A stretch of DNA of 64,000 nucleotides from Lacunisphaera sp. (GTDB lineage Bacteria > Verrucomicrobiota > Verrucomicrobiia > Opitutales > Opitutaceae), in the NCBI GenBank assembly GCA_035545835.1, contig DASZXO010000022.1:1092-65091 (forward strand), written 5' to 3'. Position 1 is the first letter of the stretch. Every line of letters starts with the position of its first letter. Below the pieces are notes generated by a model. That model was not told where the DNA came from. It saw nothing but the letters and a program-made list of their open reading frames with translations, and ran no database searches. A program made the translations under genes and the position numbers. Below are positions 4,412 to 19,757 of the stretch, piece after piece.

Positions 4412-4723
4412 ATGAACAAATCCACGAAGACCATCATCATGGCCGCAGCGATCTCCGGCCTTTATCTCGGCGGCCTCGCCCTCAAGTCCTACGGCAGCGT
4501 CGGCACCTCCGCCGGCCACGAGGACAAGGCGTCCAAGGACAGCTGCAAGGGCAAGGACGGCTGCAAGGGCAAGGACGACGGCAAGTCGCATGACTGCAAA
4601 GGCAAGAATGACTGCAAGGGCAAGGGCGGCTGCTCGGCCGGCGACAACGGCTGCAAGGGCAAGAACTCCTGCAAGGGCAAGGGCGGCTGCGCGACCAAGG
4701 ACGACGATGCCAAGAAGGGCTGA
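4412..4723 (+). CDS. Cys-rich secreted RiPP precursor, BufA2/bufferin-like
   Basis: Sec-type signal peptide; six CKGK units and two GGC (8 Cys); directly upstream of DUF692, DUF2063 and DoxX genes. Confidence 0.85.
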   Translation: MNKSTKTIIMAAAISGLYLGGLALKSYGSVGTSAGHEDKASKDSCKGKDGCKGKDDGKSHDCKGKNDCKGKGGCSAGDNGCKGKNSCKGKGGCATKDDDAKKG

Positions 4724-4773
4724 TTTGTTCACGTGAACGGGCCCGTCCGGGTTCGTTCCACCCATTCCACGCC

Positions 4774-4808
4774 GGGAGACCGGGCCTCGCCCCGGTCTCC
4801 CTTTTTTT
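4774..4808 (+). terminator. Intrinsic terminator between precursor and MNIO gene
   Basis: 11-bp perfect stem GGGAGACCGGG/CCCGGTCTCCC, 6-nt loop, then T7. Confidence 0.85.
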
Positions 4809-4898
4809 GACCGACCCGGGAATTGCCGGGCGGGGTCGCTGATCCCGCCCTACAGCGTCAGCTTGACCGCTGAAAATTCCGAATAATTCGTTCTCCCC

Positions 4899-5783
4899 AT
4901 GCCCGCCAACAGCTTCAACGGCTTCACCGACTACGGCATCGGCATCGGCCTGCGCATCCCGCACTACGACCACATCCTGACGCGCAAGCCGACGGTCGAC
5001 TGGTTCGAGATCATTTCCGAGAACTTCATGGTCGACGGCGGCCGCCCGCTCGAGGTCCTCGACCAGATCCTGGCGCAATACCGCGTCGTCCAGCACGGCG
5101 TCGCGCTGTACTTCGGTTCGGCCGACGGCCCGAACAAGGAGCACCTCCGCCGGCTGAAGGTGCTCACGAAGCGCACGAGGACGCCGTGGCTCTCCGACCA
5201 CCTCTGCTGGGGCAGCGTGGACGGCAGCTACTCGCACGACCTGCTGCCCATGCCCTACACGATGGCCGCGGCGCGCAAGACGGCCGAGAACATCCGCATG
5301 GTGCGTGACTACCTTGAGCTGCCGATCGCGGTCGAGAACGTCAGTTCCTACACCGAGTTCCACGTCTCCGAGATGACCGAGTGGGAATTCCTCACCGAGG
5401 TCGTCGAGCTGGCCGACTGCGGAATTCTCCTCGACGTGAACAACATCTACGTCTCGTCGAGGAACCACAATTTCGACCCGTACGATTACCTGAACAAAGT
5501 GCCGCACCATCGCGTCGCCCAGATGCACATCGCGGGGCACACGAGGTTCGAGAAGTACATCCTCGACACGCACGACCACCCGGTGCTCGACCCGGTCTGG
5601 AAGATGTACGCGCACGCCACCCGGCTGTGCGGCGTCACCGCCACGTTGCTGGAGTGGGACGACAAGATCCCGTCGTTCGACGAGGTGCACGCCGAGGCGC
5701 TCAAGGCGAACGAGTTCATCGCGCAGGCGCGCGAGGCCGGCATTCCCGCGCCGCGCGAAACCGTGAAGGGGCGGGGCCGGTGA
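4899..5783 (+). CDS. DUF692 multinuclear non-heme iron oxidase (MNIO, BufB-like)
   Basis: GIGLR, EIISENF, HGVALYFG, SDHL, AVEN, LLDVNNIYV, HIAGH, DTH and LLEWD motifs. Confidence 0.95.
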   Translation: MPANSFNGFTDYGIGIGLRIPHYDHILTRKPTVDWFEIISENFMVDGGRPLEVLDQILAQYRVVQHGVALYFGSADGPNKEHLRRLKVLTKRTRTPWLSDHLCWGSVDGSYSHDLLPMPYTMAAARKTAENIRMVRDYLELPIAVENVSSYTEFHVSEMTEWEFLTEVVELADCGILLDVNNIYVSSRNHNFDPYDYLNKVPHHRVAQMHIAGHTRFEKYILDTHDHPVLDPVWKMYAHATRLCGVTATLLEWDDKIPSFDEVHAEALKANEFIAQAREAGIPAPRETVKGRGR

Positions 5784-5825
5784 GGATCGTGCAAATGCAT
5801 GCACACACCCCGGCGCGGCGCGTCA

Positions 5826-5860
5826 CCCCTCTGGCCAGAGGGGAGTCAAGGCCCGCCTAC
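5826..5860. repeat. Perfect 18-bp palindrome with GTAG-type REP-like end
   Basis: CCCCTCTGGCCAGAGGGG (5826-5843) followed by GCCCGCCTAC (GTAG on the - strand), between DUF692 and DUF2063. Confidence 0.5.
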
Positions 5861-5915
5861 GAAGTTCCCCGCTATGCTGAGGGGGGCCCGACAGGGCGGG
5901 GTGTGTAGGAGCGCC

Positions 5916-6854
5916 ATGCCCGCCGCATCCAAACGCTTCGCCCCGACTGCGGTCCGCTCCACCGGCCAGCTCGCCGCCTTGCAGCGCGCCATGTGGGGCG
6001 TGATCTCGCGGCCGTTGACCGACGACAGCCGCATGCAGCCGCGCTGGTCCGACGGCCGGCCGACCGGCGAGGTCGCCGGGCAGATTGCGAAGCCCAACGA
6101 CCGGCTGACCTCCTTCGAGCGGCTCGAGATCTACAACCGGATGTACTGGTTCCGCGTGCTCGACAGCCTGTACGACGATTGTCCCGGCCTGCGCGCCGTG
6201 CTCGGCGACCGGAAGTTCATCGCGCTGGCCGAGGCGTACCTCGTCAAATATCCGTCGCGCTCCTTCACCTTGCGCAACCTGCCGGACCGGCTGGCGCCAT
6301 TCATCCGCGAGGAGCCGCGGTACACCCGCCCGCACACCGCGCTCTGCCACGACCTCGCGCGCTTCGAGTGGGCGCGGGTGGAGGTGTTCGACACCGCGAC
6401 GAAGCCGCTTTTCACGACAAACGACCTGCTCGACGTCGCGCCGGCGAAGCAGGGCCGGCTCAAGCTCGCGTTGCAGCCCTACCTGCAGTTGCTGAAGCTG
6501 GATTACCCGGTCGACGAGTTCATCCTCGCGGTGAAGCAGCGCGAGGCGGAGCTCCTCCGCGGCGACGCCAGCAACGCCCCGTCGGCGCTGCGCCGGCGGA
6601 AGCATCGTCCGGTGAAGCTCCCCGCCCGCGCGCGCACGTATGTGGCGGTGCACCGGCTCGAGGGCCAGATCTACTTCAAGCGCCTCGAGCCCGCCGCCTA
6701 CCGCATCCTTGTCGCCCTGCGCGGCGGCGCCACGCTCGAGCAGGCGCTCGCCACCGGCCTCCCGCGGGCGAGGAAGTCGCAGGCCGACTGGGCGGCGAAG
6801 GTGCGCGACTGGTTCCAGAACTGGATGCAGCTCGGCTGGCTTTGCCGGCGGTAA
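5916..6854 (+). CDS. DUF2063 MNIO partner protein (BufC/HvfC-like)
   Basis: RLEIYNRMYWFR, LARFEWA and YPVDE motifs; AGGA Shine-Dalgarno before ATG 5916. Confidence 0.85.
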   Translation: MPAASKRFAPTAVRSTGQLAALQRAMWGVISRPLTDDSRMQPRWSDGRPTGEVAGQIAKPNDRLTSFERLEIYNRMYWFRVLDSLYDDCPGLRAVLGDRKFIALAEAYLVKYPSRSFTLRNLPDRLAPFIREEPRYTRPHTALCHDLARFEWARVEVFDTATKPLFTTNDLLDVAPAKQGRLKLALQPYLQLLKLDYPVDEFILAVKQREAELLRGDASNAPSALRRRKHRPVKLPARARTYVAVHRLEGQIYFKRLEPAAYRILVALRGGATLEQALATGLPRARKSQADWAAKVRDWFQNWMQLGWLCRR

Positions 6855-6971
6855 GGGCGGTCAATCACACCGGATGGAGACGAGTTCCGCGACGAAGAGC
6901 TGGAGGACGGGATCAGCGGTCCCGCTCTACATATTTTGGAATAGCCGCTGACCTCAAATCTCCCACCCCCC

Positions 6972-7430
6972 ATGAAAATCCGCGCCCTCTACGAAAAATT
7001 CGAGACTTTCGCCTCCTGGCTGCCATCGCCGCTGCTGCTGGTCATCCGGCTGTACTGGGGCATTTCGTTTGTGCAAACCGGCTGGGGCAAGCTCATGCAC
7101 CTCGACCGGACCGCGGCGTATTTTACCGACCTCGGGCTCCCGGTGCCGAAGGTGAACGCATTCATGGCCGGATCGACGGAGTGCTTCGGCGGCCTGCTGC
7201 TTGCGCTCGGCCTCTGCGCCCGGGGCGCGGCCGTGCCGCTCATCTTCTGCATGCTCGTCGCCTACGCGACGGCCGACGGCGAGGCCCTGCGCGCGATCTT
7301 CAGCGACCCGGACAAGTTCACCGGCGCGACGCCGTTTCTCTTCTTCTATGCCGCGCTGATCGTGCTGGCCTTCGGACCGGGCAAGCTCTCGCTCGATACG
7401 CTGGTCTTCCGGAAGGCGCCAAAATCGTAG
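6972..7430 (+). CDS. DoxX family membrane protein (BufD-like)
   Basis: LLVIRLYWG..F..TGWGKL, ECFGGLLLALG and FGPGKLSLD. Confidence 0.9.
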   Translation: MKIRALYEKFETFASWLPSPLLLVIRLYWGISFVQTGWGKLMHLDRTAAYFTDLGLPVPKVNAFMAGSTECFGGLLLALGLCARGAAVPLIFCMLVAYATADGEALRAIFSDPDKFTGATPFLFFYAALIVLAFGPGKLSLDTLVFRKAPKS

Positions 7431-10665: not shown

Positions 10666-11478
10666 ATGCTTCTTAAGACCCACCCCACGCCGGTGATGGA
10701 ATTGTCCCCCAAAAGCCCCGCCGCAACCTCAACCCGCCTGGTGCCGGGAGGAAGTCCCGTGTCGATCCCGAGCGAAAACGGCACCTTCCATTACTTCGGC
10801 ATCCCGCGGCGAACGCGCATTCCGTGGCTCGCCCTGTTGGTGTCGGTCTCGTTGCACGCGATCGGCATACTTGGTTTCAACGGCCGCCCGGCGCCGAAGA
10901 AGGTCGTTGTGGCCAAGGAGGAAGCGTCCGAGATCCTCATGATGCCAAACCTCGACGAGGAGGAGGAGAAGAAGCCGCAGGAGCTCACCGATGACGCGGA
11001 GATCACCCCGCCCTCGGTCCAGGTTCCGATGCTGGCGGACATCCCGACGATGATCGAGACGAGTGCGTTTACGCAGCTGGTTGACCTGACGCCGCCGCCG
11101 GCCCTCGACGCCGCGGTCAGCAACGTCGTCGCCATCCCGGTGAACATCCAACGCGGCCGGCCCGACACTAGCAAGATCAAGGACCTGTTCAACCTCGCCG
11201 ATCTCGACCGTCCGCCGCAGCCCATCGTGCAGACCCCGCCGGTCTTCCCCTACGAATTGAAGGCGCAGGTCACGGAGGCGAGTGTGCGGCTGGGTTTCAT
11301 CGTCACCGCGCAGGGTGACGTCATCCTGCCGTACGTGGTGAACTCCACCCATCGCGGCTTCGAGCGCCCGGCGATCGAGGCCGTGTTGAAGTGGAAATTC
11401 AAGCCCGGCATGCGCGGCGGCCGCAAGGTCAACACGCGCGTCGAGCAGCCGATCAATTTTACGGTCACGTCGGACTGA
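10666..11478 (+). CDS. tonB: Energy transducer TonB
   Basis: Single TM anchor (LLVSVSLH), Pro-rich linker, C-terminal FERPAIEAVLKWKFKPG. Start uncertain. Confidence 0.9.
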   Translation: MLLKTHPTPVMELSPKSPAATSTRLVPGGSPVSIPSENGTFHYFGIPRRTRIPWLALLVSVSLHAIGILGFNGRPAPKKVVVAKEEASEILMMPNLDEEEEKKPQELTDDAEITPPSVQVPMLADIPTMIETSAFTQLVDLTPPPALDAAVSNVVAIPVNIQRGRPDTSKIKDLFNLADLDRPPQPIVQTPPVFPYELKAQVTEASVRLGFIVTAQGDVILPYVVNSTHRGFERPAIEAVLKWKFKPGMRGGRKVNTRVEQPINFTVTSD

Positions 11479-11493
11479 GGTTTGGCCGATGGA

Positions 11494-11566
11494 GTGGAGG
11501 CGGGGTGCCCTCACCCCGCGATGTGCATGCGCGAATGAGAACCCGCGGGACGAGGGCGCTCTCCAC
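11494..11566 (-). repeat. REPIN-like family A copy (reverse orientation)
   Basis: Reverse complement of GTGGAGGCGGGACGCCCTCGTCCCGCGGG...CCTCGCGGGGTGAGGGCACCCCGCCTCC. Confidence 0.85.
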
Positions 11567-11570
11567 CCTT

Positions 11571-11624
11571 TGGAGGGCCGGTCTCCTGACCGGCCGCGCG
11601 GTCGGCCGGGAGGCCGACCCTCCA
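11571..11624 (-). repeat. REPIN-like family B, copy 2
   Basis: Reverse-complement match to 2717-2768; directly adjacent to a family A copy. Confidence 0.75.
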
Positions 11625-11651
11625 TATCGAGTCGGATCCTTTCGTTCCGAT

Positions 11652-12344
11652 CTAGATCGCCGCAGTGACCGGCAGCTCGCGCCAGGTGCCCGGAGACACG
11701 CCGTCGAGCGTGAGCGCGCCGAACCGCACGCGCTGCAGCGTGAGCACCTCGCAGCCCTGGCTCGCGAACATCCGCCGCACCTGGTGATAGCGGCCCTCGG
11801 TCAGCGTCAGCTCCGCCTCGCGCGGCGCCAGCAGCCGCAGTTCCGCCGGGGCGCAGGGCTCGTCCTCGTCCTTGAGCCGCAGGGTGCCGCCGGCGAACAG
11901 CGCGGCCGTGCCGGCCGGCACGTCGGCGTCGAGCGTGGCGCGATAGATTTTCGGCACCTTGTGGCGGGGCGAGGTGAGCCGGTGGACGAGTTCGGTTTGG
12001 TCGGTCAGCAGCAGCAGGCCGCTGGTGTCCTTGTCGAGCCGGCCGACGCTGGTCACGCCCGGGTTGCGCCGGCGCCAGCGCGGCGGCAGCAGCGAATAGA
12101 CGTTCGGGCCCTCGCGTTCGTCATGCGAGCACACCAGCCCGACGGGCTTGTGCAGGAGGAGCAGCAGGCCGTCCGGGTGATCGGGCGGCTCGCCGTCGAT
12201 CCGGACCTCCGCCGGGTCGGCCTTGGCGCCGAAATCGTCGGCGACCTCGCCGCGCACGGTGACGCGGCCGTCCTCGATCCACGCGCGCGCCTCGCGGCGG
12301 GAGCAATAGCCGAGGTTGGCGAGGAGCTGGTCGAGCCGGCGCAT
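11652..12344 (-). CDS. rRNA pseudouridine synthase, RsuA family
   Basis: S4 domain MRRLDQLLANLGYCSRREAR; HKPVG; catalytic GRLDKDTSG; EGRYHQVRRMF. Confidence 0.93.
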   Translation of the reverse strand: MRRLDQLLANLGYCSRREARAWIEDGRVTVRGEVADDFGAKADPAEVRIDGEPPDHPDGLLLLLHKPVGLVCSHDEREGPNVYSLLPPRWRRRNPGVTSVGRLDKDTSGLLLLTDQTELVHRLTSPRHKVPKIYRATLDADVPAGTAALFAGGTLRLKDEDEPCAPAELRLLAPREAELTLTEGRYHQVRRMFASQGCEVLTLQRVRFGALTLDGVSPGTWRELPVTAAI

Positions 12345-12402
12345 GGCAGGCATCAGACAACAACGGGTCGGGTGCCGCACCAAGGAATTTCGCTGGATTG
12401 TT

Positions 12403-12464
12403 CGCTGCGCTCGGAATGACACGAATCCGAACAAGGTGACGATATTGTCGTCCCGAGCGCAGCG
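12403..12464. repeat. Inverted repeat of TGTCATTCCGAGCGCAGCG-type element (family F)
   Basis: Arms at 12403-12421 and 12446-12464 match at 17/19 nt as an inverted repeat. Confidence 0.6.
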
Positions 12465-12510
12465 GAGGATCCCGTCGGGCGGGGTGCGACGGGAACTTCA
12501 GCCGGCCGTC

Positions 12511-14649
12511 CTACCATGCGGAGCGAAAGCCGCCGAGGATCAGGCGTGGCGTGCCGGTGTTGACGAGACCGTCGGCGCTGCGGCCCGTTTCGATGCGGGC
12601 GTCGCCGAGATTTTCGCCGGTCAGGAAGAGCTCGCCGCGCCGGCCGAGGGCGTAGCTGGCGGTGAGGTCGGCGACCACCGCGGCGCCGAGGACGAGCTGG
12701 TTCTCGTCGTCCTCGAACTGCCGGCCGAGCCAGCGCACGCGGGGCGTGAGTGTGAAGCCGCCGGGCCCGTGCCACACCGCGCCCAGCGTGGCGCTCTGGC
12801 GCGGGACCTGGGCGAGGCGTTTGCCCACAAGGGCGGGAGCGACCGCGGCGGCCTGCACGCTGGTGTCATCGTAGAGGAAGGCCGCGTCGAACCCGAGGCT
12901 GGCCACGGGCTGCCAGTGGGCGGAAAGCTCGAGGCCGCGCACCCGGGTGCGGTCGAGGTTGAGCCGCTCGCGGCCGAGCCCGCCGGCCGGCACGAAACCG
13001 ACGATCGGGAAGTTGCCCGGGCCGTGCGCGAGCGTGACGTTGCCGACGGCGTCGTGGAGCTCGTTCCAGAAGGCCGCGGCGGAGAGCTGCCACGGGCCGG
13101 CGGCGTAGTCGGCGCCGAGTTCCGCGCTCGTCACGCGCTCGGTCTTGAGCGCGGGGTTGGCCTCCGTGATGACGTTGCCGACGCGGAAGGGACGGTAGAG
13201 CTCGTTGAGCGTCGGCCGGCGGAAAGCCTGCTGGCCGGCGGCGCGGAGCCGCCAGCCTTTGGCCGGCTGCCACACCAGCCCGGCACTCGGGCTGAACTCC
13301 AGTCCGTCGTGATCCGCGTAGTGGTCATCGCGCAGCACGGCGCCGGTCGCGCGATCGGTTTCGCGGCGGTGACCGTCGCTCTCGCGCCAGTCGTCGAGCC
13401 GGGCGCCGAGCGTGAGGTTCCAGTCCGCCGCGAGCGGTCGCTCGTGGAGCGCAAAGAGGCCGGCGACGTCCTGGGTGCCGCCGGCGAGGCGCTGGCGGGT
13501 GAAGTCGCCGTTGCTGAACGTGTAGAACTCGCGGGTCTCGCCGCGCACGCGGCGCCAGTCGCCCCCGAGGCTCGTTCGCGCCCCGCCCGGATCGCTCCAC
13601 ACACCGGTCCACGCCAGGCCCCAGGCGGCCGCGGGCACATCGTACTGGTTGCTGGCGGGCGTCTCGGCCGTGCGCGCGGCGTTCACCGCGCTGAACGTGC
13701 TGGTGTACGCCTGGGCCTGACCGTAGGCGGTGGCGGTCCACGCGAAGCGGTCGCCCGCCCTGGCCGCGAACGTGGCCGCGACGGAATTCTCGCGGGAGGT
13801 GTTGACCTGGTAGGGCGTGCCGTTGTCGCGCGTCTCGCCGTAGGTGCGCGCAGAGACCGTCAGCACGCCGTTCGCGCCGGCCGGCTGGCTCCAGCGGGCC
13901 GCGAGCCAGTGGTGCCGGCTCCAGGCGGCGATGTCGATCGGCCCGCGGTCCTCGGGCGCGACGAGCGGAAAGCCGTCGGTGGCGAAATCGCGGCCGGACA
14001 ACTGCAGCGTGCCGCGGCCCGCGGGTTGCGTGAGCTCGAACTCGGCGCTGCGTGTCGCGAAGCGGCCGTAGCTCGCGGCGAGACGCGAACGGGCGTCGAC
14101 GGGGGACTCGGTGAAGAGCTGCACGATGCCGCCGAGGGCGGCGTTGCCCCAGGCCGTGGCGCCGCCGCCGCGCACGAGTTCGACCCGGGCGAGCGATTCC
14201 CGCGGCACCATGCTCCAATTCACCCAGCCGCCGAACGGGTCGTTGAGCGGCACGCCGTCGAGCAGCACGAGCGACCGGCTCGCGCCGCTCGGGCCGAGAC
14301 CGCGCAGCGAGACGCCCTGTGCGGTCGGATTCGCCGTGAGGCTGTCGCTGCGCCGAAACAGGCTGAAGCCGGGCACGGCGCGCAGCGCATCGTCCACCGT
14401 GACCGTCGGCGCCGCGCGCAGGTCGTCGCCGGGCAAATTCACGACCGAAAACGGGACCAGCGCGGGCGGCACCGGCGCGCGGGTGGTGCTGACGACCATG
14501 TCGGGCAGCGCGAGCTGGGCCGAGAGGCGGGCAACCCCGAGGCAGAAGAGAAACAACAATGTCGGGCGGGGTCGCCGGATCCCGCCGGGTCGGTTGGCGG
14601 CGGGATCAGGCGATCCCGCCCCACGGCCGAGCTTGTTGTCCCCGCTCAC
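12511..14649 (-). CDS. TonB-dependent outer membrane receptor
   Basis: TonB-box-like MVVSTTR; plug motif SLRGLGPSGASRSLVLLDGVPLNDPFGGW; terminal aromatic (FRSAW). GTG 14649 overlaps the cytochrome c stop (GTGA). The track ORF to 15555 is over-extended. Confidence 0.9.
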   Translation of the reverse strand: MSGDNKLGRGAGSPDPAANRPGGIRRPRPTLLFLFCLGVARLSAQLALPDMVVSTTRAPVPPALVPFSVVNLPGDDLRAAPTVTVDDALRAVPGFSLFRRSDSLTANPTAQGVSLRGLGPSGASRSLVLLDGVPLNDPFGGWVNWSMVPRESLARVELVRGGGATAWGNAALGGIVQLFTESPVDARSRLAASYGRFATRSAEFELTQPAGRGTLQLSGRDFATDGFPLVAPEDRGPIDIAAWSRHHWLAARWSQPAGANGVLTVSARTYGETRDNGTPYQVNTSRENSVAATFAARAGDRFAWTATAYGQAQAYTSTFSAVNAARTAETPASNQYDVPAAAWGLAWTGVWSDPGGARTSLGGDWRRVRGETREFYTFSNGDFTRQRLAGGTQDVAGLFALHERPLAADWNLTLGARLDDWRESDGHRRETDRATGAVLRDDHYADHDGLEFSPSAGLVWQPAKGWRLRAAGQQAFRRPTLNELYRPFRVGNVITEANPALKTERVTSAELGADYAAGPWQLSAAAFWNELHDAVGNVTLAHGPGNFPIVGFVPAGGLGRERLNLDRTRVRGLELSAHWQPVASLGFDAAFLYDDTSVQAAAVAPALVGKRLAQVPRQSATLGAVWHGPGGFTLTPRVRWLGRQFEDDENQLVLGAAVVADLTASYALGRRGELFLTGENLGDARIETGRSADGLVNTGTPRLILGGFRSAW

Positions 14650-15194
14650 TTCGGCAGGCCGGGCCGGGCGCGGGCGACCGCGACCTCGGCGGGCGTGACG
14701 GGCTTGGTGATCGGCTCGGCGGCGAAGCGGTGGCGGACGTAGGTGGCGACGGCGGCGACCTGTTCGTCGCTCAATGCGTCCTGCGGCGCCATCTTGTTGT
14801 CGTAGGCATCCGCGGCGGCGCCGACCACCTCGGCGCCCCGGAGAATCAGCGACAGCAGGTACTGCGGGTCGGGATTGGAGATCCACGCGCTCTTGTTGAT
14901 GCCGGGCTGCATGAACGGCACGCCGTTGCCGTCGGCCATGTGGCAGGTCGCGCACGTATCCGCGTAAACCTTCGCGCCCTGCTTGAGCAATGCGTCCATG
15001 TCCACCTTGGTCGGGGCGGCCGCGCCAGCCCGGGCCGGTGGTGCCGCGGGTGTCGGGGCGGGCGCCGACTTTGGGGCGGGCGCCGCCGGCTTTTCCGCGG
15101 CGGCGGCGGGTGATGCGGCCGCGGCGGCCGGCGGCTCGGCTTTCGAGCACGCCGCGAGCAACAGGACCGCGGTGGCGCAGGCGAGCGATCTCAC
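14646..15194 (-). CDS. Lipoprotein class I cytochrome c
   Basis: Lipobox LLAAC; Ala/Pro linker; CATCH heme motif; distal Met in NKMAP. GTG 15194 overlaps the upstream stop. Confidence 0.88.
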   Translation of the reverse strand: MRSLACATAVLLLAACSKAEPPAAAAASPAAAAEKPAAPAPKSAPAPTPAAPPARAGAAAPTKVDMDALLKQGAKVYADTCATCHMADGNGVPFMQPGINKSAWISNPDPQYLLSLILRGAEVVGAAADAYDNKMAPQDALSDEQVAAVATYVRHRFAAEPITKPVTPAEVAVARARPGLPK

Positions 15195-16450
15195 TTTTCG
15201 CCGGTGTAGATGATGCGCCACACGCGGCCGTTCGACGAATCGGTGATGTAGAGCGAGCCGTCGGGGCCGACGGCGACGCCGTTCGGCCGGTGCAGCGCGT
15301 CGCCGGGCGAGGCGAGCGAGGTGTAGCCGGCGAAGTTGTCGGCGAAGGTCTCGAAGGCGCCCGTCGGCAGGCCTTTTTCATCGAACGGAATGAAGACGAC
15401 CTGGTAGCCGGCCTGCGGCAGCGGGGCGCGGTTCCACGAACCCTGGAAGGCGAGGAAGGCACCGCCGCGGTATTTTTCCGGGAACTGCGTGCCGGTGTAG
15501 AAGGCGAGCTGCATCGGCGAGTAGTGCGCGGGGAAGACGACGAGCGGCGCGTCAAACCGGCCCGAGTCGTCGACCTTCTTGCCGTCGCCGCCGTATTCCG
15601 GGTTGAGCTTGCGCTCCTTTGTGCGCGCGTCGACGTAGGTGTAGGGCCAGCCGAAATTGGCTCCGTCGCGCAGCAGGTGCATGACCTCGGCGGGATTCTC
15701 CGAGTTGTCGAGTGCCGTGTAGTCCTTCGGGTCGACGGTGTTGAGCTGGTCGCGGCCGTGGATGCAGATGAAGAGCTGCCCGTTGGCCGGGTTGAGCGCG
15801 ATGGTCGTCGAGTGCCGGTGGCCGGTCGAGACGTGGACGCCGGTGGCCTGCGTCTGGTCGGGCTTGTCGGGATCGAAGCGCCAGTAGCCGCCGTGGGTCT
15901 TGAGGAATTCGGTGGGATCCTCGCCCTTGGCGCCGAAGGCGCGGTCGCGCTTGCCGCCGTAGGCGTTCGAGGGCGAGCCGGTCTCGACGTACAGCTGGCC
16001 GTCGGCGCCGAAGGCGAAGGCCTTGGCGTTGTGCTGCTTTTCGTCGGGCAGGTCGCGCACGATGCGCTCGGGCTCGCCGGCCGGCACGAGTTCGCCGGGG
16101 GTCAGCTTGTAGCGGTAGACGGCGTCGTTGGTCGACTCGTACAGCCAGCCGTTGTGCAGGGCGATGCCGGTGCCGCCGCCGGAGCCGAATTCCTTGATGA
16201 TCTCGGCGCGGCCGTCGCCGTCGGCGTCGCGCAGGGCGTAGATGCCGTCCTCGCGCGTCTTGATGTAAAGGTCGCCGTTGTCGGCGACGGCCAGGTTGCG
16301 CAGCGGCTTCAGGTGGTCGGCGACGACCAGGGCATGGAAGCCCATCGGCAGGATGAGGCCGCCGTTGTCGGCGTCCGGTTTGGGCAGGGCCGCGAAGGCG
16401 GCGGTCGCGAGCAGGAGCGACGCGGTCGGCAGCAGGTAGGGCGTGGGCAT
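15191..16450 (-). CDS. Secreted PQQ-dependent sugar / L-sorbosone dehydrogenase family protein
   Basis: Signal peptide; beta-propeller repeats; GHRHS (GxRN-like), HGRDQL, GWPY, AHYSPM, GSWNR and RPNGVAVGPDGSLYITD. Start ATG 16450. Confidence 0.88.
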   Translation of the reverse strand: MPTPYLLPTASLLLATAAFAALPKPDADNGGLILPMGFHALVVADHLKPLRNLAVADNGDLYIKTREDGIYALRDADGDGRAEIIKEFGSGGGTGIALHNGWLYESTNDAVYRYKLTPGELVPAGEPERIVRDLPDEKQHNAKAFAFGADGQLYVETGSPSNAYGGKRDRAFGAKGEDPTEFLKTHGGYWRFDPDKPDQTQATGVHVSTGHRHSTTIALNPANGQLFICIHGRDQLNTVDPKDYTALDNSENPAEVMHLLRDGANFGWPYTYVDARTKERKLNPEYGGDGKKVDDSGRFDAPLVVFPAHYSPMQLAFYTGTQFPEKYRGGAFLAFQGSWNRAPLPQAGYQVVFIPFDEKGLPTGAFETFADNFAGYTSLASPGDALHRPNGVAVGPDGSLYITDSSNGRVWRIIYTGEK

Positions 16451-16561: not shown

Positions 16562-18127
16562 ATGTCCAATTGGGAATACAAGCTCGTCAGCAGCGGCAAG
16601 GGTGGGTTCGCGTCCCCGGCGCTGATGGAGAAGTTTTTGAACGACCTCGGGCAGGACAACTGGGAGATCATCAGCTTCCACCAGCCGCCCGACAATCCGC
16701 TGGCCTTCCACGGGCTGGCCCGCCGGTCCACGCAGAAGGACTGGACACTGGAGGACGCGGCTCGCGCGGCGGCCCGCGTCGAGGCCGACAAATTGCGCGC
16801 CGAGTTCGAGGCCAAGTTCCGCGCCGGCACGGGCCAGCCGGAGGCGGCCGCCGAGGAGGAGGGGGAGACCTTCCTGGCCGAGGAAAAGGCGGCGAGCGCC
16901 GGCGACCTGCGCCGGCCGCGCGACACCTCGCGCGACGACGACCCCGACGCCGCCGAGGAGGAAAACGGCTCCTCCCGCGACGAATGGGAACAGCTCGCCG
17001 AGGAGGACGAGCTGCCGGTGTTCTTCGATGCCATCCGCCCGCACATGCGGCGCAACCAGCGCGGCCCGGGCATGAGCGTCGGCCTCGATTACCTGGCCAA
17101 GAAATGGCGGCTGGAGGAGGCGGACCTCAAGACCGCGCTCGTCGAATGCGGCTTCCAGATCCCGGCCGACGAGAACGCCCAGCCGGTCTACATCGAATAC
17201 GAGGGCGAGCTCTATTGGGTGAACATCAACCGCCGCGGCGAAATCTGGATCAACCTGCGCGACAAGCCCGAGCCGGTCTTCCGCGTCGCCCAGGGCAGGC
17301 GCGTCGAGAGCGTGGACGAACCGGCCGTGACGAGCGCCGCGCCCGCGCCGGCCGGGGAGCGCGCGCCGCGGCCACCGGCCGCCGCCACCCAGGCGCCCGC
17401 GTCCGGCCAGCCCGCGGCCTCCAAGACCTTCCTGGGCAAATTGCGCGGCATGATGCGGCGCAACCGGCGCGGCCACGGCTGGTCGGGCAGCTTCCCGTTC
17501 CTCACCAAGGCGCTGAAGCTCGACGAGGCGCAGCTGTTGGAAAAGCTGGCCGAGTCTGGCGTGCGGCTGCCGACTGAGGCCGAGCCGCAGCCACCGCCCG
17601 CGGCGGATGGCGACGTGGTTTTCTGGCTCAACAAGAACCAGCGCGGCGAGATCTGGATCAACGCCCGCGTCGAGCGCGACCGCGACCAGGGCGGCGCCGG
17701 CCCGGCCGAAGCGGGGGCGGAAGGCCAGGCGGCGCCAGGCGGGGAAACGGCGGGGAGTGCAGCGCCCGGTGAGCCGGTGCCGCCGGCCGCCGCCGAAGGC
17801 GCACCCGGGCCGGCCCACACGCTGCCCGCCCTGCGGCTGCTGATGCAGCCGAAGAAACGCGGCGACGGGGTCACCGCGCAGGTGAAGGACCTGGCGGAGC
17901 AGCTCGGGCGCAAGGACGAGGAATTGCTCGCCGCGCTCGCCGGCGTCGGCCTCACCGTGCCCGAGTCGCCGAAGGCCAAGCCGGCGTTTGCCGAGCACGG
18001 CGACGAGATCTTCTGGCTCAACGTCAACGCCCGCGGCCAGGTGTGGCTCAATGCCAAGTCAAAGGCGGCCACGCGGAAGACGCGCGCGAAGAAAGGAAAG
18101 GCGGACGAGGAACCGGCGGAGGAATGA
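16562..18127 (+). CDS. DUF4177-like N-terminal domain plus three copies of an uncharacterised ~85-aa domain
   Basis: WEYKLV...FLNDLGQDNWEII N-terminus; three repeats each ending W[VL]NxNxRG[EQ][IV]W[IL]N. Start ATG 16562. Confidence 0.8.
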   Translation: MSNWEYKLVSSGKGGFASPALMEKFLNDLGQDNWEIISFHQPPDNPLAFHGLARRSTQKDWTLEDAARAAARVEADKLRAEFEAKFRAGTGQPEAAAEEEGETFLAEEKAASAGDLRRPRDTSRDDDPDAAEEENGSSRDEWEQLAEEDELPVFFDAIRPHMRRNQRGPGMSVGLDYLAKKWRLEEADLKTALVECGFQIPADENAQPVYIEYEGELYWVNINRRGEIWINLRDKPEPVFRVAQGRRVESVDEPAVTSAAPAPAGERAPRPPAAATQAPASGQPAASKTFLGKLRGMMRRNRRGHGWSGSFPFLTKALKLDEAQLLEKLAESGVRLPTEAEPQPPPAADGDVVFWLNKNQRGEIWINARVERDRDQGGAGPAEAGAEGQAAPGGETAGSAAPGEPVPPAAAEGAPGPAHTLPALRLLMQPKKRGDGVTAQVKDLAEQLGRKDEELLAALAGVGLTVPESPKAKPAFAEHGDEIFWLNVNARGQVWLNAKSKAATRKTRAKKGKADEEPAEE

Positions 18128-18161: not shown

Positions 18162-19757
18162 CTACGGCCCGGCTTCGTAGGGCGACATCGTCTCCTGGTG
18201 GAATTTCGTCAGCGCCGCGAGCTGGTCGGCGACGAGGCGGTCGGCGCGGCAGAGCGGCAGCTTCCCGGCGCCGCCTTCCTGGCGCCGGGCCTGGGCCCAT
18301 TGGTCGAACACGCCGGGGATCACGAGCCGGATCGACGGCTGGTCGAGGCTGTGGGCGGAGCGCCGCGCGGCATAGTCGGGATTGCGCCGCGCCAGCTCGG
18401 CATCGAACGCGGGGCCGAGCACGTTCGCTGTCGGCGTCCGGGTGGTGTGCGTCCGGAGTTCCAGCCACCATTCGTGGCAATTGAGGCTGCGGCCCGCGGC
18501 CACGCGCCGGGAGTACGGCGCCACGTGCAGGCCGACCGGCTGCCAGCCGTTGTGCGCGCACACGGCCAGCAGCGTGTCGAGCAACTCGCGCTCGGTGACA
18601 CGCTCGCCGGCGGCATTGAGCTGCAGCTGGGTGCGGCCGACGAACTGGAGGCGCGGCGGCTTGAGGGAGTGGAAGCGCACGATGTCGCCGGGCACATGGC
18701 GGCACAGTCCCGCGGGGGTCGTGAGGACGAGCACATAGTCCACGTTCAGCTGCACCTCGGACAGCGGCACGCAATCGGTGCCCGCGTGGGCCAGCGTGTC
18801 GGCATGGAAGAGGCGCAGCGGCAGGAATTCGAAGAACAGCCCGGCCCCGGCCAGCAGGCGGAGGCCCGCGGCGCCGTGGTCATCCTGCGCGGCGATGACG
18901 CCCTCGGCGGCGGCGTAGATCTCCTGGAACCCCACCGTCGGGCCCAGCGTGGCGCGGAGCGTGTCGGCGAACAGGCCGAGCGGCGCGCCGGTGAAGAGAA
19001 AGCACTCGAGGTTGGGCCACACCGCCTGGAGGTGCGCGGCCCGCTCGGGACCGGCCGCCGCGCACACGGCCTCGGCCAGCGCGCAGACCTCCGCCGGCGT
19101 CCCGCCGACGAGCGTGACGTCGCGCGGAAGCATGGTGCCGGCGATTTGCCGCAGTTTTTCCGGGCCGGCCGGCAGCCGGGCGACCGCCGCCGGCGGCGCG
19201 TAGAGGTTGGCCTCGGCCCACGGCGAGAGGCAGAGCGCGAACATGCCATCGAGCGACGTGCGGTACGCGCCGTGGTCCTCGGTGAGCGCCGTGCTGGCGC
19301 CCGCGTGCAGGTGGCGGCCGAGAAACACGCCGGTGTGGCCCACGCGCGCCGCGTGGAGGAACAGGGCGGCGCACAGGCCGCGGCGGTAGTGCGCCAGCAT
19401 GGCGTCGGTCACCGGCAGGAGCTTGGGCGCCGCGCCGGTCGTGCCCGCGGTCTCGACGAAGAAAGGGCAGCGGCCGGGCGCGAGGACGTTCGCCTCGCCC
19501 GCGGCCATCCGGGCGACGAGCGGGGCGAAGTAATCGTGGAGGCGCGGCGGCACGCGTTCGCGGAACCGGGCGTATGGCGTGTCCGCGGCCAGGCTGTGCC
19601 CCCGCCCGAATTCGGTCGGCGCGATCCGCGCCAGCAGGCGCGCGAACGCCGCGGCCTGCGCCTTTGCATCGTGCTCCTTGTCCCCCAGCCGCCGGCTGAA
19701 CCGCGCCACGCGCCAGCCGGCCCAGAAATTCACGAGAAACCTCGGGGCGAGGGTCAT
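18162..19757 (-). CDS. GH3 acyl-adenylate/amido-synthetase family protein (divergent)
   Basis: TEFGRGH, FRERVP, ETAGTTGAAPKLLPVT, YAAAEG, FFEFLP, YVLVLTTPAGL and GDIVRF. Start ATG 19757. Confidence 0.85.
   Translation of the reverse strand: MTLAPRFLVNFWAGWRVARFSRRLGDKEHDAKAQAAAFARLLARIAPTEFGRGHSLAADTPYARFRERVPPRLHDYFAPLVARMAAGEANVLAPGRCPFFVETAGTTGAAPKLLPVTDAMLAHYRRGLCAALFLHAARVGHTGVFLGRHLHAGASTALTEDHGAYRTSLDGMFALCLSPWAEANLYAPPAAVARLPAGPEKLRQIAGTMLPRDVTLVGGTPAEVCALAEAVCAAAGPERAAHLQAVWPNLECFLFTGAPLGLFADTLRATLGPTVGFQEIYAAAEGVIAAQDDHGAAGLRLLAGAGLFFEFLPLRLFHADTLAHAGTDCVPLSEVQLNVDYVLVLTTPAGLCRHVPGDIVRFHSLKPPRLQFVGRTQLQLNAAGERVTERELLDTLLAVCAHNGWQPVGLHVAPYSRRVAAGRSLNCHEWWLELRTHTTRTPTANVLGPAFDAELARRNPDYAARRSAHSLDQPSIRLVIPGVFDQWAQARRQEGGAGKLPLCRADRLVADQLAALTKFHQETMSPYEAGP

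Follow-up and report, generated by a model that had tools for sequence, protein, structure and literature searches.

What does a TonB-dependent receptor import when its gene closes an operon that opens with a putative pyrroloquinoline quinone (PQQ) dehydrogenase, in a bacterium without recognisable PqqC or PqqE? The question is raised by a locus of Lacunisphaera sp. (Opitutaceae), which was analysed in a window of 64,000 nucleotides (nt) from contig DASZXO010000022.1 of assembly GCA_035545835.1 (4.04 Mb, 93% complete); the window below always means this whole stretch. From the genomic evidence the receptor is probably a PQQ importer, and a candidate member of a second importer family that is independent of PqqU (YncD), the known PQQ importer of E. 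coli (PDB 9C4O/6V81; Munder et al. 2025, PMC12124388). The operon contains the following features:

15191..16450, minus strand: dehydrogenase open reading frame, 419 amino acids (aa), Pfam GSDH and TrAA12
15749..15760, minus strand: HGRD metal-site motif of the dehydrogenase (residues 231-234), of the HGRD...E type
14646..15194, minus strand: cytochrome open reading frame, 182 aa, Pfam Cytochrom_C
12511..14649, minus strand: TonB-dependent receptor open reading frame, 712 aa, Pfam Plug and TonB barrel

The original prediction had described three minus-strand genes joined by two GTGA stop/start overlaps, encoding a secreted PQQ/sorbosone-type propeller dehydrogenase, a lipid-anchored cytochrome c on an Ala/Pro tether and a TonB-dependent receptor. 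This description was confirmed throughout, the overlaps lying at 15194-15191 (dehydrogenase/cytochrome) and 14649-14646 (cytochrome/receptor). The identities follow from the Pfam matches above, from the AA12 enzymes as nearest folds of the dehydrogenase and from the LAAC lipobox (residues 13-16) and tether (residues 17-62; 46 residues, 74% Ala/Pro) of the cytochrome. Both overlaps occur more than expected by chance, because they are conserved across related loci, the closest of which are those of Lacunisphaera and Oleiharenicola. The GTGA between dehydrogenase and cytochrome is kept in all 14 loci in which these are split genes, and an in-frame receptor start is overlapped by the cytochrome stop in 19 of 29 related loci, mostly with a normal signal peptide directly after it. 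A search for sigma-70 promoters and terminators at the locus gave no signal above chance.

Searches of the whole genome by TIGR02111, PF03070 and tblastn with Sinorhizobium PqqC/PqqE detected neither PqqC nor PqqE; as a control, the TIGR02111 model finds 51 of 301 Alphaproteobacteria. The predicted absence of pqq genes from the window thus holds, and for PqqC/PqqE it extends genome-wide. Likewise, 36 congeners contained no PqqC-family gene and 56 Opitutales genomes no PqqU orthologue (best E value 1e-30, 25% identity). The dehydrogenase is the sole clear PQQ enzyme of the genome, in which neither an 8-bladed PQQ enzyme nor a PqqT homologue was detected. All congeners with the receptor (29/29) have a PQQ enzyme; in the six receptor-bearing congeners that lack this dehydrogenase, a YliI-type enzyme is present (E 2e-119 or better), and in G021, G025 and G027, which kept the receptor, the YliI-type (calcium) enzyme is the only PQQ enzyme found. 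Six of the eight receptor-less congeners are without a clear PQQ enzyme, the two exceptions being fragmented assemblies. Of the co-occurrence expected for the three genes, that of the receptor with a PQQ enzyme in the same genome therefore stands. Adjacency of the receptor to this particular dehydrogenase does not: in 55 Opitutaceae-type loci the receptor occupies a fixed site, and the enzyme lies upstream of it in 12.

The receptor family comprises at least 7,098 clusters at an E value of 1e-40 or better. Its members adjoin PQQ enzymes of five unrelated kinds, and do so at about 12 separate positions of a FastTree tree, in all three main clades; since the branches of this tree are long, its root and the placement of PqqU in it are not trusted. 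Besides the dehydrogenase described here, the neighbours include another six-bladed enzyme, which is accompanied by a dihaem cytochrome (six loci), as well as XoxF-like enzymes together with XoxJ, alcohol dehydrogenases of the quinohaemoprotein type and glucose-type dehydrogenases. What these partners have in common is the cofactor, and neither a substrate nor a metal. When representatives of the family were picked blind to their context, 4 of 12 had a PQQ enzyme within 5 kb, where by our estimate about 1-3% would be expected. In one alphaproteobacterium the enzyme, cytochrome and receptor genes form the same operon, which contains an ATGA overlap (45%, 36% and 36% identity, respectively). PqqC/PqqE had no match in 165 receptor-family loci, and no riboswitch was found in ten receptor loci.

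Other genes were also seen beside members of the family. Genes for an msrPQ-like molybdoenzyme often adjoin them (L025:3968-5659, about 15 other Opitutaceae loci, L138, L146 and L152). A distant receptor relative (L215:6561-10960, E 3e-100), in the pqqC-positive genome G138, stands beside a PCuAC copper chaperone and perhaps represents a metal-importing sister group. In L113 and L121 receptor-family genes are paired, or a sensor kinase and a response regulator follow the receptor gene.

In the 301 Alphaproteobacteria, the core receptor family was found in 12 genomes (one being the seed genome), all of which have a PQQ enzyme and none of which has pqqC; pqqC is present in 51 of the 301. Of the 88 PQQ-using genomes, 10 have the receptor and none of these has pqqC, against 46 of the 78 without it (Fisher p 3e-4, with kin not independent). 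One of the five genomes with a PQQ-associated ATP-binding cassette (ABC) cluster but without pqqC, G292, encodes a receptor that is 43% identical to that of the window over its length. In G292 and in locus L208 the receptor gene overlaps the final gene of an ABC transporter operon, whose binding protein matches PqqT (9B1U, E 2e-72) and retains L37, T41 and K142. PqqT of Methylorubrum extorquens binds PQQ at 60 nM (PDB 9B1U; PMC11331073); a homologue and its ABC genes are co-operonic with the receptor family in two genomes, but the Lacunisphaera genome has no PqqT homologue. The import of PQQ by the receptor, as originally proposed, is thus supported indirectly as regards scavenging (by the lack of pqqC in carriers, the PQQ-enzyme neighbours and the PqqT operon), whereas the receptor is not an orthologue of PqqU/YncD.

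Judged by its sequence, the receptor, one of 13 TonB receptors in the genome, belongs to a family distinct from PqqU/YncD. Its identity to PqqU in a profile alignment is about 20-21%, and PqqU was not listed by phmmer with the receptor as query. The family is characterised by the motifs FRR..HPT.QG, DPFGGW and ELYRPFR and by many conserved Arg and aromatic residues, R99, R100, W142, W145, R235, R274, R387, R486 and R489 among them, which, if they line the pocket, would fit a tricarboxylic aromatic ligand. No NCBIfam receptor model reaches its cut-off for the receptor, the ESM Atlas yielded generic receptor clusters only, and a literature search of incomplete coverage found no characterisation of the family. 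Foldseek ranks PqqU (9c4o) first by a small margin, whereas VIA ranks BtuB and FyuA (Z 41-42) above PqqU 6v81 (37.8) and 9c4o (35.3); because the two rankings disagree, the fold is uninformative on the substrate. Like PqqU, the receptor is a single-domain TonB receptor of about 700 aa from PQQ users that do not synthesise the cofactor, and like PqqU it is usually not syntenic with its enzymes. Unlike PqqU, it represents a separate family from groups in which PqqU was scarce in the published survey (Alphaproteobacteria n=1, Verrucomicrobia n=5; PMC12124388). The same survey suggested that PQQ users without PqqU synthesise PQQ or depend on diffusion.

The model of the dehydrogenase (pLDDT, the predicted local distance difference test score, of 88.8) has fungal AA12 enzymes at Foldseek ranks 1-4, followed by bacterial soluble glucose dehydrogenases. 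With TrAA12 (6i1t, E 3e-22, template modelling score 0.76) as top match and CcPDH (6jt5) among the others, the enzyme is predicted to be a six-bladed, AA12-like propeller nearest to TrAA12 and CcPDH. The layout of the PQQ site of these nearest solved folds (CcPDH, 6JT5/6JWF; TrAA12, 6I1Q) is mostly retained: nine PQQ contacts of CcPDH were compared (R273, H363, R430, N431, H539, H560, W563, N564 and R621), and seven are identical (R51, H140, R212, H309, W339, N340 and R388). Identity to the fungal AA12 enzymes is about 20%, and in contrast to them the enzyme is periplasmic and has a c-type instead of a b-type cytochrome; CcPDH likewise hands its electrons to an attached cytochrome. No lanthanide-type metal site (NERD..D / NGRD..D) is present in the dehydrogenase, which has HGRD...E. 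Enzymes with this motif (cluster C2) were inferred not to bind lanthanides in a preprint (bioRxiv 10.64898/2026.07.10.737718). Relatives of the dehydrogenase carry HGRD or, in half of them, MGRD, a variant absent from the motifs in the passages of that preprint considered here.

The cytochrome has its haem motif, CATCH, at residues 81-85, and M135 aligns to the Met of the cytochrome domain of Ralstonia nitrite reductase (3zbm), its top PDB match (E 8e-11); the CxxCH and this Met make it a class I monohaem cytochrome c. The dehydrogenase and cytochrome are fused into a single protein in 19 of 32 Opitutales rows. The 13 split forms constitute a single clade (Shimodaira-Hasegawa-like approximate likelihood ratio test 100), and because of this a single fission event, with gain of a lipid anchor, is suggested. 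At the position of CcPDH His560 (residue 336, codon 15443-15445), 9 of the 13 enzymes of the split form have Gln, and every fused one has His. A model of the dehydrogenase-cytochrome complex scored 0.72, compared to 0.00 for the best control, at a mark that was reached by 51 of 78 solved pairs and 2 of 108 mismatched pairs. Between runs, 96% of the contacts agree, the partner pLDDT is 90, and the haem face is placed over H140, D234, W339 and N340. That the cytochrome is the dedicated electron acceptor of the dehydrogenase, as had been proposed, is well supported by the gene fusion and by a complex model that beats its controls.

The dehydrogenase-cytochrome pair is of an already known kind. 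The six-bladed PQQ propeller with monohaem cytochrome c551 of Voutsinos et al. (bioRxiv 10.64898/2026.07.10.737718; cluster C2) has the same fold and HGRD...E motif. The preprint also describes 3ZBM-like cytochrome partners of such six-bladed enzymes in Bacteroidetes, the same type of cytochrome (closest structure 3ZBM) and fused forms; different here are the lipoprotein nature of the cytochrome, on its Ala/Pro tether, and the coupled receptor, which is not described there. Because two of its nine PQQ contacts are substituted, the dehydrogenase would fail the strict filter of these authors.

Differences between related loci also concern the enzyme gene. Compared to the window, the receptor is 75-77% identical in L003/L004 and the enzyme, which is fused there, 61-62%; in L010/L012 the receptor is 66-68% identical and the enzyme, which is split, 76-77%. 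This contrast suggests in-place replacement of the enzyme gene. In L032, a cytochrome remnant (4695-4961) lies between the DUF4177-like gene that flanks these loci and the receptor, and the enzyme is absent, which fits enzyme loss.

Several observations weigh against PQQ import by the receptor, or against the coupling of import to this enzyme. The residues that define PqqU, Y99, R304 and R365 (PMC12124388), are missing: Y99 falls in a 3-residue gap and R304 is replaced by Gln (profile alignment at about 21% identity), and R365 by the Thr of GETxE (manual strand alignment). In fold, BtuB and FyuA are at least as close to the receptor as PqqU is. In 29 of the 55 Opitutaceae-type loci no enzyme adjoins the receptor, which directly faces the divergent DUF4177-like gene, and a receptor clade of 32 members, in apparently sphingomonad/caulobacter-type neighbourhoods, is without PQQ-enzyme adjacency. 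Co-occurrence of receptor and PQQ enzyme is confounded by kinship and genome size, and many PQQ users that lack pqqC also lack the receptor family. The complex model may owe its passing to a resemblance with solved fused quinohaemoproteins; because this can happen with the halves of fused genes, it adds little beyond the gene fusion. Finally, two CcPDH contacts are replaced in the dehydrogenase (N431 by H213 and H560 by Q336). Most of its relatives retain H560. PQQ use by the dehydrogenase remains likely from its residues, because TrAA12 itself deviates at several of the contact positions and the more distant homologues L213 and L217 retain all nine.

The main rival explanation, which we regard as unlikely, is that, like LutH or LanA, the receptor takes up lanthanides, alone or in a complex with PQQ, and that the dehydrogenase is lanthanide-dependent. 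It takes this place because some family members lie in xox clusters and because the lanthanide receptors of the 2026 preprint also lack the PqqU residues. Several receptor-family neighbours are indeed XoxF-like lanthanide enzymes, which also speaks against a role in PQQ import, and members occur in xoxF-xoxJ-cytochrome clusters with TIGR03863/TIGR03866 genes. The receptors of the preprint are found in Verrucomicrobia and have PqqU as top PDB match, as the receptor itself narrowly has with Foldseek. LutH, TonB_Ln and LanA are likewise TonB receptors near PQQ alcohol dehydrogenase clusters, and differ from the present family in their described gene context: the receptors of the preprint adjoin pqq biosynthesis genes, whereas the 165 loci gave no PqqC/PqqE match and receptor carriers are without pqqC. 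Import of lanthanides would also fit poorly with an HGRD...E enzyme, with a genome that has no 8-bladed or lanthanide-type enzyme, and with G021, G025 and G027, whose only PQQ enzyme found is of the calcium type; the coupling to PqqT indicates PQQ. A screen of the 301 Alphaproteobacteria for mxaI found no bearer, and 20 ped/lut-like loci contained no LutH-type receptor.

A little less probable again is an unrelated housekeeping importer of a vitamin or metal at a fixed site, upstream of which the enzyme-cytochrome gene was merely inserted. The receptor keeps its place beside the DUF4177 gene whether or not the dehydrogenase is there, msrPQ often follows it in Opitutaceae, a distant relative stands beside a copper chaperone, and automatic annotation labels some members cobalamin receptors. 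However, this would leave the repeated PQQ-enzyme adjacency, the PqqT operon and the exclusion of pqqC unexplained, and neither the ten loci searched for riboswitches nor the NCBIfam receptor models at their cut-offs lend it a signal. It is improbable that, in the manner of a polysaccharide-utilisation locus, the receptor takes up the substrate of the dehydrogenase, be it a sugar, a sugar acid or a small aromatic. PQQ six-bladed enzymes are frequently found in carbohydrate clusters, and gluconolactonase and GMC oxidoreductase genes lie beside some members of the family, but the partner enzymes differ in their substrates (alcohols, glucose, AA12-type sugars) and share the cofactor only, and glycoside hydrolases or sugar regulators are not conserved in the loci. 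Substrate import and coincidental insertion both account for fewer observations than does import of PQQ.

Around the operon, the following features were annotated:

10666..11478, plus strand: tonB paralogue, on the opposite strand to the operon, past the rsuA-like gene
11652..12344, minus strand: RsuA-family pseudouridine synthase, a neighbour outside the module
12395..12472: palindrome of a second family like repetitive extragenic palindromic (REP) elements, just 3' of the receptor
14561..14624: REP-like palindrome, in frame, in the N-terminus/signal-peptide region of the receptor, with 27-nt arms that are 89% complementary
16562..18127, plus strand: DUF4177-like gene, divergent from the operon, a marker of the fixed site that the receptor occupies on Opitutaceae chromosomes

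The tonB gene does lie about 1 kb beyond the receptor, as had been noted, but its linkage to the module was rejected: it is on the plus strand, it is shifted or missing in related loci, and there are at least six paralogues, so that it is no evidence for a module.

The arm motif of the REP-like palindrome within the receptor gene has 63 matches genome-wide. The insert adds about 20 codons to the receptor and is confined to the present genome and the two relatives closest to it (L001 and L002, near 5880-5960), where reading frame and translational coupling are preserved. The possibility that this element had created the second GTGA overlap as an artefact was rejected; since the overlap at 14649-14646 is conserved in relatives that lack the repeat, it is not accidental. 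At least three further families of dispersed palindromic repeats with many genome copies were seen (window 11480-11650 and 12395-12472). The DUF4177-like protein has three internal repeats of about 75 aa and is conserved throughout Opitutaceae, and a gene for a GH3-family acyl-adenylate enzyme (18162-19748, minus strand) is kept close to the locus in many of them. At 4412-7430 (plus strand) of the window, a Cys-Lys-Gly repeat precursor (103 aa) is followed by a DUF692/MNIO enzyme, DUF2063 and DoxX; the genes resemble a bufferin-type cluster for a metal-binding ribosomally synthesised and post-translationally modified peptide.

If the receptor imports PQQ, the locus would serve a PQQ auxotroph as an operon for import and oxidation. 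The receptor would draw trace PQQ through the outer membrane, and the six-bladed apo-enzyme in the periplasm would take up this PQQ together with a metal, probably calcium judging from its fold and residues, and oxidise a sugar or sugar derivative. Electrons would pass to the co-translated, membrane-tethered cytochrome c, docked over the PQQ site in the model, and from there to a haem-copper oxidase, for which the genome has three genes. It is expected that the receptor supplies every PQQ enzyme of the cell, and relatives would therefore retain it after losing this dehydrogenase.

For the family as a whole we lean, with slightly less assurance than for the single receptor, towards widespread importers that bind PQQ with residues other than those of PqqU and that replace biosynthesis in Opitutaceae, Chthoniobacterales, Sphingomonadales and other Alphaproteobacteria. 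If true, this would give a function to a large unannotated family of TonB receptors and reveal a second way to bind PQQ, and it would close much of the gap that the published survey of PqqU leaves. A second importer family of more than 7,000 clusters would also alter how much PQQ cross-feeding is estimated to occur in soil and fresh water.

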